From: Bacillota bacterium
GTDB lineage: Bacteria > Bacillota > Negativicutes > JBAXTZ01
Reading direction: 5' to 3'
Assembly: GCA_037129925.1 (NCBI GenBank)
Contig: JBAXTZ010000016.1
Coordinates: 909 to 64,908 of the forward strand
DNA: 64,000 nucleotides
Of this stretch, positions 49,603 through 49,725 are shown one piece after another. The notes beneath the pieces were generated by a model. The model had not been told where the DNA came from, did not search any database, and worked only from the letters and a program-made list of their open reading frames with translations. A program made the position numbers and the translations under genes. Every line of letters begins with the position of its first letter. Position 1 is the first letter of the stretch.

Positions 49603-49725
49603 ATGAAAATAAAAAAAGTCTGGCTAGACCCGGAAATAGAGTTTATCGACGTTGCTACGACTTTGTCTGGCGGCGGGACTTTCGACGATCACGACACTTC
49701 CCATTCGCCGCCCCCATCCTCGTAG
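49603..49725 (+). CDS. Paeninodin-type lasso peptide precursor MKIKKVWLDPEIEFIDVATTL-SGGGTFDDHDTSHSPPPSS
   Basis: Manual translation (not in ORF track); RBS AAGGTG; leader WxxPxI/LExxDVxxT with Thr at -2; core starts with Ser, has Asp at 7/8 and ends in Ser; extended -10 TGGTAAAAT upstream. Confidence 0.75.
   Translation: MKIKKVWLDPEIEFIDVATTLSGGGTFDDHDTSHSPPPSS

Follow-up and report, generated by a model that had tools for sequence, protein, structure and literature searches.

Lasso peptides in general carry rings of 7-9 residues. Among their precursors, those of the paeninodin family, which include PadeA from Paenibacillus dendritiformis and PbaA from P. alginolyticus (NF033524), come closest to the peptide described here: they are likewise about 40 aa long, their leaders share K-18, W-15, P-12, [L/I]-10, E-9, D-6, V-5, T-2 and a hydrophobic residue at -1, and their cores share Gly2, Gly4 and a C-terminal Ser with our peptide. 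In the crystal structure of PbaB1 with PbaA, the RRE contacts K-18, W-15, P-12, L-10 and the strand formed by E-9/V-8/L-7 (PMC13381572), and the C-terminal Ser is given as the residue that PadeK-type kinases phosphorylate (Zhu et al. 2016, as cited in PMC7533575). The reference cluster of Paenibacillus thiaminolyticus has the gene order C-A-K-B1-B2-D, and of 119 family loci, 108 have one or more of C, B1, B2 and K within 8 kb. A second described system, the linear polyphosphorylated peptides (LPPs; LppA), uses a lasso-like [Y/W]xxP leader that is bound by a discrete RRE; this leader, which carries YxxPxVLxHQxIxFETxxS, is cut by an SpI-type peptidase, and Ser is phosphorylated by an HprK-like kinase, while a cyclase is not needed (Popov et al., Nat Commun 2026; PMC13381572).

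The locus compared with these systems lies in a window of 64 kb (the whole stretch of DNA analyzed, 64,000 nucleotides), which is almost the whole of its 65,230-nt contig and belongs to a Negativicutes MAG from lake metagenomes (freshwater). The sequence at 49603-49725 on the forward strand reads as an ORF coding for the 40-aa peptide MKIKKVWLDPEIEFIDVATTLSGGGTFDDHDTSHSPPPSS. This ORF is a genuine gene, and we describe its product as a divergent relative of the paeninodin-type precursors that is expected to work alike, without filing it as a member of the family. The gene and its surroundings comprise the following features:

41853-49469, reverse strand: giant inverse autotransporter adhesin of 2538 aa, with PF11924 (IAT_beta, E 2e-24) in its N-terminal 390 aa
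49547-49574, forward strand: promoter-like site from a consensus scan, with a TTGATT -35 element, a 16-nt spacer and a TG-extended -10 element, TAAAAT
49593-49599, forward strand: Shine-Dalgarno sequence GGTGATC, read from the sequence, 3 nt 5' of the ATG
49603-49665, forward strand: leader of 21 codons, MKIKKVWLDPEIEFIDVATTL, delimited by ungapped alignment to paeninodin-family leaders
49666-49725, forward strand: core of 19 codons plus stop, SGGGTFDDHDTSHSPPPSS, delimited by comparison with family members
49778-50039, reverse strand: putative 3' fragment of a group II intron (Rfam RF00029), a multi-copy element, with domains V-VI at 49778-49854
49942-49980, forward strand: 17-bp hairpin, then a T-rich run, from a terminator-like scan; candidate terminator for the transcript from the peptide promoter
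50040-50122, reverse strand: remnant of an MNT-type nucleotidyltransferase gene, about 28 codons, with 87% nucleotide identity to the start of a sister-lineage gene (L120:12527-12922)
50141-52618, reverse strand: gyrA, convergent with the peptide gene, assigned by the Pfam families of its 825-aa orthologue

The initial annotation had reported a 40-aa ORF with a ribosome binding site and an extended -10 element, divergent from an invasin and directly followed by an intron remnant, and all of these elements were recovered. The Shine-Dalgarno sequence GGTGATC, which we take to pair with the 3' end of the 16S rRNA, and the TG-TAAAAT element are both present; the gene divergent from the peptide gene, with 134 nt between the two start codons, encodes the 2538-aa protein with the inverse-autotransporter beta domain (PF11924); and the intron domain V-VI match, at 31.6 bits, lies 52 nt after the peptide stop codon. 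The description of the ORF as hidden was not accurate, as its exact 40-aa product is already found among called proteins with NCBI as the source. The predicted promoter-like site matches 9 of 12 consensus positions, in addition to the TG before the -10 element. The role of the hairpin as a terminator is uncertain since it lies within the repeated intron element; its 17 bp are perfectly paired here, and other copies of the element carry a CTACT insertion. The ORF was present as a single copy with an identical sequence in five lake metagenomes (X1-X5) and absent from three others (X8, X9 and X11). Across 15 kb, gyrA included, three metatranscriptomes from the same sample yielded no contig from this organism, so that they carry no information on the transcription of the gene.

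The leader of the peptide carries K-18, W-15, P-12, I-10, E-9, F-8, I-7, D-6, V-5 and T-2, and thus contains the RRE-binding motif WxxPx[L/V/I], made up of W-15, P-12 and the hydrophobic I-10, and after it the E-9 strand. Its penultimate residue is T20, the counterpart of the invariant T in the family motif ..DVxxTM. At the positions that are contacted in the PbaB1-PbaA structure, the invariant residues are retained and the remaining changes are conservative, a pattern which, judged from the sequence, suggests that the leader diverged while selected for docking, at least up to recent times. Unlike the paeninodin family, in which LE[VTI]LDV is invariant, the leader reads IEFIDV, and the core contains His9, flanked by Asp7, Asp8 and Asp10, at the position where 104 of 105 distinct family members have the ring acceptor Asp9. 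The core further comprises Ser1, Gly2, Gly4 and a C-terminal Ser (it ends in SS), so that the small N-terminal residue, Asp7/Asp8 as candidate acceptors and the terminal Ser ascribed to it earlier are all in place. It differs from the cores of the family in its Pro-rich tail, with His as its only bulky residue. All 105 genome-derived members carry the terminal Ser, and so does each true precursor from metagenomes that is complete; altogether, the 148 family members collected all end in Ser, as does the 40-aa peptide, and this residue lies outside both the degenerate pattern and the matched HMM region used in the searches described below. Variation in the core also occurs within the family itself. 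One precursor on a metagenome contig with a GC content of 0.65 (L147) has a long N-terminal extension and Asp8 in place of Asp9 (GGVGAEAD...), which suggests, at the level of sequence, that ring size is not fixed within the family. Two other precursors (L111 and L129) combine a canonical leader with extraordinary Gly/His-rich cores (GIGGGGGNGGGNGGGHGGGGGGKGPCGHKGHHG...).

In contrast to the genes of the paeninodin family, the gene of the 40-aa peptide is not flanked by C, K, B1, B2 or D. The earlier statement that B1, B2, C and a kinase are missing from the 64 kb was borne out by Pfam searches of the long ORFs, by tblastn and by family HMMs built from 78-93 homologues per enzyme, none of which revealed C, B1, B2 or the kinase in the window; the only signal from the enzyme HMMs was a P-loop similarity of the kinase HMM to MetN. 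The 644-nt intergenic region around the peptide gene was likewise free of relics of C, K, B1 and B2 when examined by tblastn and the family HMMs. Just downstream of the giant autotransporter gene lies an ORF of 262 aa (41047-41835, reverse strand) that matches no Pfam family and resembles outer-membrane beta-barrel models (TDE1717, PorT/SprT) only faintly; a tblastn match of PadeC in this ORF (E 0.19) was rejected as noise. No publication describing lasso clusters in Negativicutes turned up in a literature search.

The peptide also resembles LppA in its [Y/W]xxP-type leader, and it might be the substrate of an RRE-dependent system that does not form lassos, either a linear phosphopeptide matured by an RRE and an HprK-like kinase with no cyclase or a small partner of the adhesin. 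For such a substrate speak the missing Asp9 acceptor, the abundance of Ser, Thr, Asp and Pro in the core, which might suit a kinase substrate, the precedent of the LPPs, which are linear phosphopeptides using lasso-like leaders (PMC13381572), and the divergent arrangement with the inverse autotransporter gene, whose start codon is 134 nt away. However, an LPP precursor proper was rejected, as the leader WLDPEIEFIDVATTLS has W for Y and contains neither HQ nor FET, and the WxxP that it carries instead is nearly invariant in paeninodin-like leaders. Moreover, the Pfam families of an SpI-like peptidase, an RRE and an HprK-like kinase of the LPP type are all absent from the 64-kb window. With regard to an adhesin partner, the sole related autotransporter that was found, from Sporomusa rhizae (30% identity), has an acetyltransferase gene upstream and, among the genes called there, no small one at that position. 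We therefore regard a non-lasso substrate as rather unlikely.

The likeness to the paeninodin-type precursors was also apparent in profile and pattern searches. Of the NCBIfam models, NF033524 ('paeninodin family lasso peptide') alone matched the peptide; its score of 17.4 bits (E 0.0027) is below the curated cutoff of 27 bits, while ten of the most divergent true family members scored 32.9-68.1 bits on the same model. No family was assigned by Pfam. Comparison of peptide residues 3-26 with five family members by hhalign gave a probability of 89% over 24 columns without gaps, and BLASTP against one family member gave an E value of 6e-7. The proposed position-by-position alignment with a paeninodin leader therefore stands, running through 23-24 positions of real family members without a gap. 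The leader quoted for that comparison has W at a position where the nearest P. thiaminolyticus relatives among the retrieved sequences, P0002 (95% identical to the quoted one) and L056, have Y; W is found in most family members. A degenerate DNA pattern derived from the common positions, [W/Y]xxPx[ILMF]Ex[ILMF]DVxxT[ILMF]xGxG, matched at least 119 loci in species genomes and 44 loci in JGI metagenomes, and all of these matches except one were precursor-like ORFs of 39-69 aa. Although the positions of the pattern were chosen where the peptide agrees with the family, the NF033524 model is free of that choice and points in the same direction. Among the matches listed, all that carry an organism name are from Bacillales, in contrast to the Negativicutes host of the 40-aa peptide.

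Within the window, the pattern had one match, even when two mismatches were allowed, and none was found in 100 shuffles of the window. A family HMM built from 105 distinct precursors gave the 40-aa ORF a score of 23.2 bits (E 4e-6) among the 1451 stop-to-stop ORFs of the window, and the next ORF reached 4.8 bits; a resemblance at this level, so far ahead of the runner-up, is unlikely to have arisen by chance. Outside the window, a word-indexed search of 5.8 billion protein clusters yielded no homologue of the peptide, and phmmer, run in full against 1.84 billion representatives, retrieved only the peptide itself. A version of the pattern with Ile, Val or Met at -7 had no match in the JGI metagenomes, the general pattern had none in viral contigs, and tblastn of the peptide against plasmids was negative. 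This lack of homologues could be taken to mean that the ORF is an open frame of the 644-nt intergenic region that is under no selection and resembles a lasso leader by accident, all the more as it spans only 40 codons, scores under the NCBIfam cutoff and, being identical in X1-X5, offers no population variation that could be used for a selection test; in addition, a few matches of 17 bits are expected by chance over some 250,000 windows. Against a chance ORF stand the HMM score, which is 18 bits above that of the next ORF, the result of the shuffles (0 of 100 with two mismatches allowed) and the concurrence of independent features, namely the terminal Ser, Thr-2, a correctly spaced Shine-Dalgarno sequence and a promoter with a TG-extended -10 element, so that we consider this explanation improbable. 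The possibility that the true gene is an overlapping frame of 74 aa (49581-49805, forward strand), perhaps translated from a leaderless mRNA since its ATG lies about 7 nt past the predicted -10 element at the expected transcription start, with the 40-aa frame being incidental, is highly improbable, as the 74-aa frame has no family match and no Shine-Dalgarno sequence and is arginine-rich, which is typical of off-frame reading, while all homology evidence resides in the 40-aa frame, the one called with NCBI as the source.

In summary, the 40-aa peptide is probably the product of a single-copy small gene that is a descendant or sister of the Bacillota paeninodin-type (WxxP-leader) lasso precursors. 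Of the lasso-precursor interpretation put forward in the initial annotation, the likeness itself, the window free of maturation enzymes and the intron remnant hold, but the peptide falls short of the family cutoff and has no Asp9. The sub-cutoff score, His9, the IEFIDV leader and the lack of homologues are also the reasons why we do not file the peptide as a family member.

The surroundings of the gene bear on its origin. Synteny with a sister lineage is restricted to 50040-56576, where nucleotide identity is 86%, and the nucleotidyltransferase gene that is intact in the sister lineage (L120:12527-12922; 131 aa) is cut at 50040 in the window. Position 50040 is a lineage-specific rearrangement breakpoint located just beyond gyrA and about 315 nt from the peptide gene, with the group II intron fragment between the two. 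The peptide was absent from the sister locus, of which 22 kb were examined; the end of synteny at 50040 together with this absence places the gene on the novel side of the rearrangement. The intron fragment, whose upper boundary (50039) is set where the homology with the sister lineage ends, was assigned by an RF00029 match at 49778-49854 on the reverse strand that covers the full length of the model at 31.6 bits (E 0.00098), which is below the gathering score of 40. Other copies of the element diverge from this one to the left of about 49778-49797. In the lake metagenomes sequencing depth rose to as much as 390x at the fragment versus 13x on its flanks, and this spike supports a mobile repeat at this site.

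Precursor genes without adjacent maturation genes also occur in Paenibacillus. At seven loci of the P. amylolyticus group (L015, L019, L033, L078, L086, L110 and L115), the precursor lies in the middle of the locus with no lasso enzyme gene within 8 kb, similar to the 40-aa gene, which has no C, B1, B2 or K nearby. These solo precursors read METKK..WQAPELEVLDVQQTMAGYGFRQIDW.., and at least two of the genomes also have a precursor linked to a cluster at another locus (L030 with L078; L011 with L046), which makes maturation in trans plausible in principle. However, the solo precursors of the P. amylolyticus group are canonical, with Asp9 and a score of 57 bits for the one tested, and have been kept across species beside a methyltransferase gene, whereas the 40-aa peptide has a divergent leader and its gene is a singleton. 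An ORF of 286 aa is located about 0.6-1 kb from the precursor at L019, L086, L110 and L115, with one of 283 aa at L078, and the L019 and L115 copies of the 286-aa ORF match SAM methyltransferase families.

If the 40-aa peptide were processed in the manner of the paeninodin-type precursors, its 21-residue leader would dock in beta-strand form onto B1, a PqqD-like recognition protein, with Trp-15, Pro-12 and Ile-10 occupying hydrophobic pockets of B1, and Thr-2 would mark the site of cleavage by the B2 protease. An Asn-synthetase-like cyclase would then link Ser1 to Asp8 or Asp7, and the terminal Ser would be a possible phosphorylation site for an HPr-kinase-like enzyme. The calculated monoisotopic mass of the core is 1883.756 Da in the linear form and 1865.745 Da once cyclized ([M+2H]2+ 933.880), with each phosphate adding 79.966 Da. 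Provided that the gene is real, there is a little under an even chance that the peptide is matured in trans in this way by a cluster located elsewhere in the genome. The other outcome, a stranded and unprocessed leftover, is somewhat favored, since the gene adjoins a lineage-specific breakpoint and is missing from the sister version of the locus. It is a further, though doubtful, prospect that the peptide is the first observed member of a divergent lasso-type subfamily outside the Bacillales or represents a pairing of a lasso-like leader with a giant surface adhesin. Such a subfamily could be native to Negativicutes or to a neighboring lineage, with a recognition protein that co-evolved with the leader, an 8-membered Ser1-Asp8 ring and a Pro-rich tail ending in Ser.

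For either outcome the value of the finding is modest until the remaining genome has been searched. Should the genome prove to have no such enzymes, the locus would represent a clean case of a precursor stranded through rearrangement and a caution for genome mining that is centered on precursors. If, on the other hand, the genome contains matching enzymes, paeninodin-type lasso peptides would be extended to diderm Firmicutes, and a matured product would have an unusual core that is acidic and Pro-tailed and probably forms an 8-membered ring. In that case the recognition protein would have to tolerate IEFIDV where the family has the invariant LEVLDV, and this would bear on how RREs discriminate between leaders.
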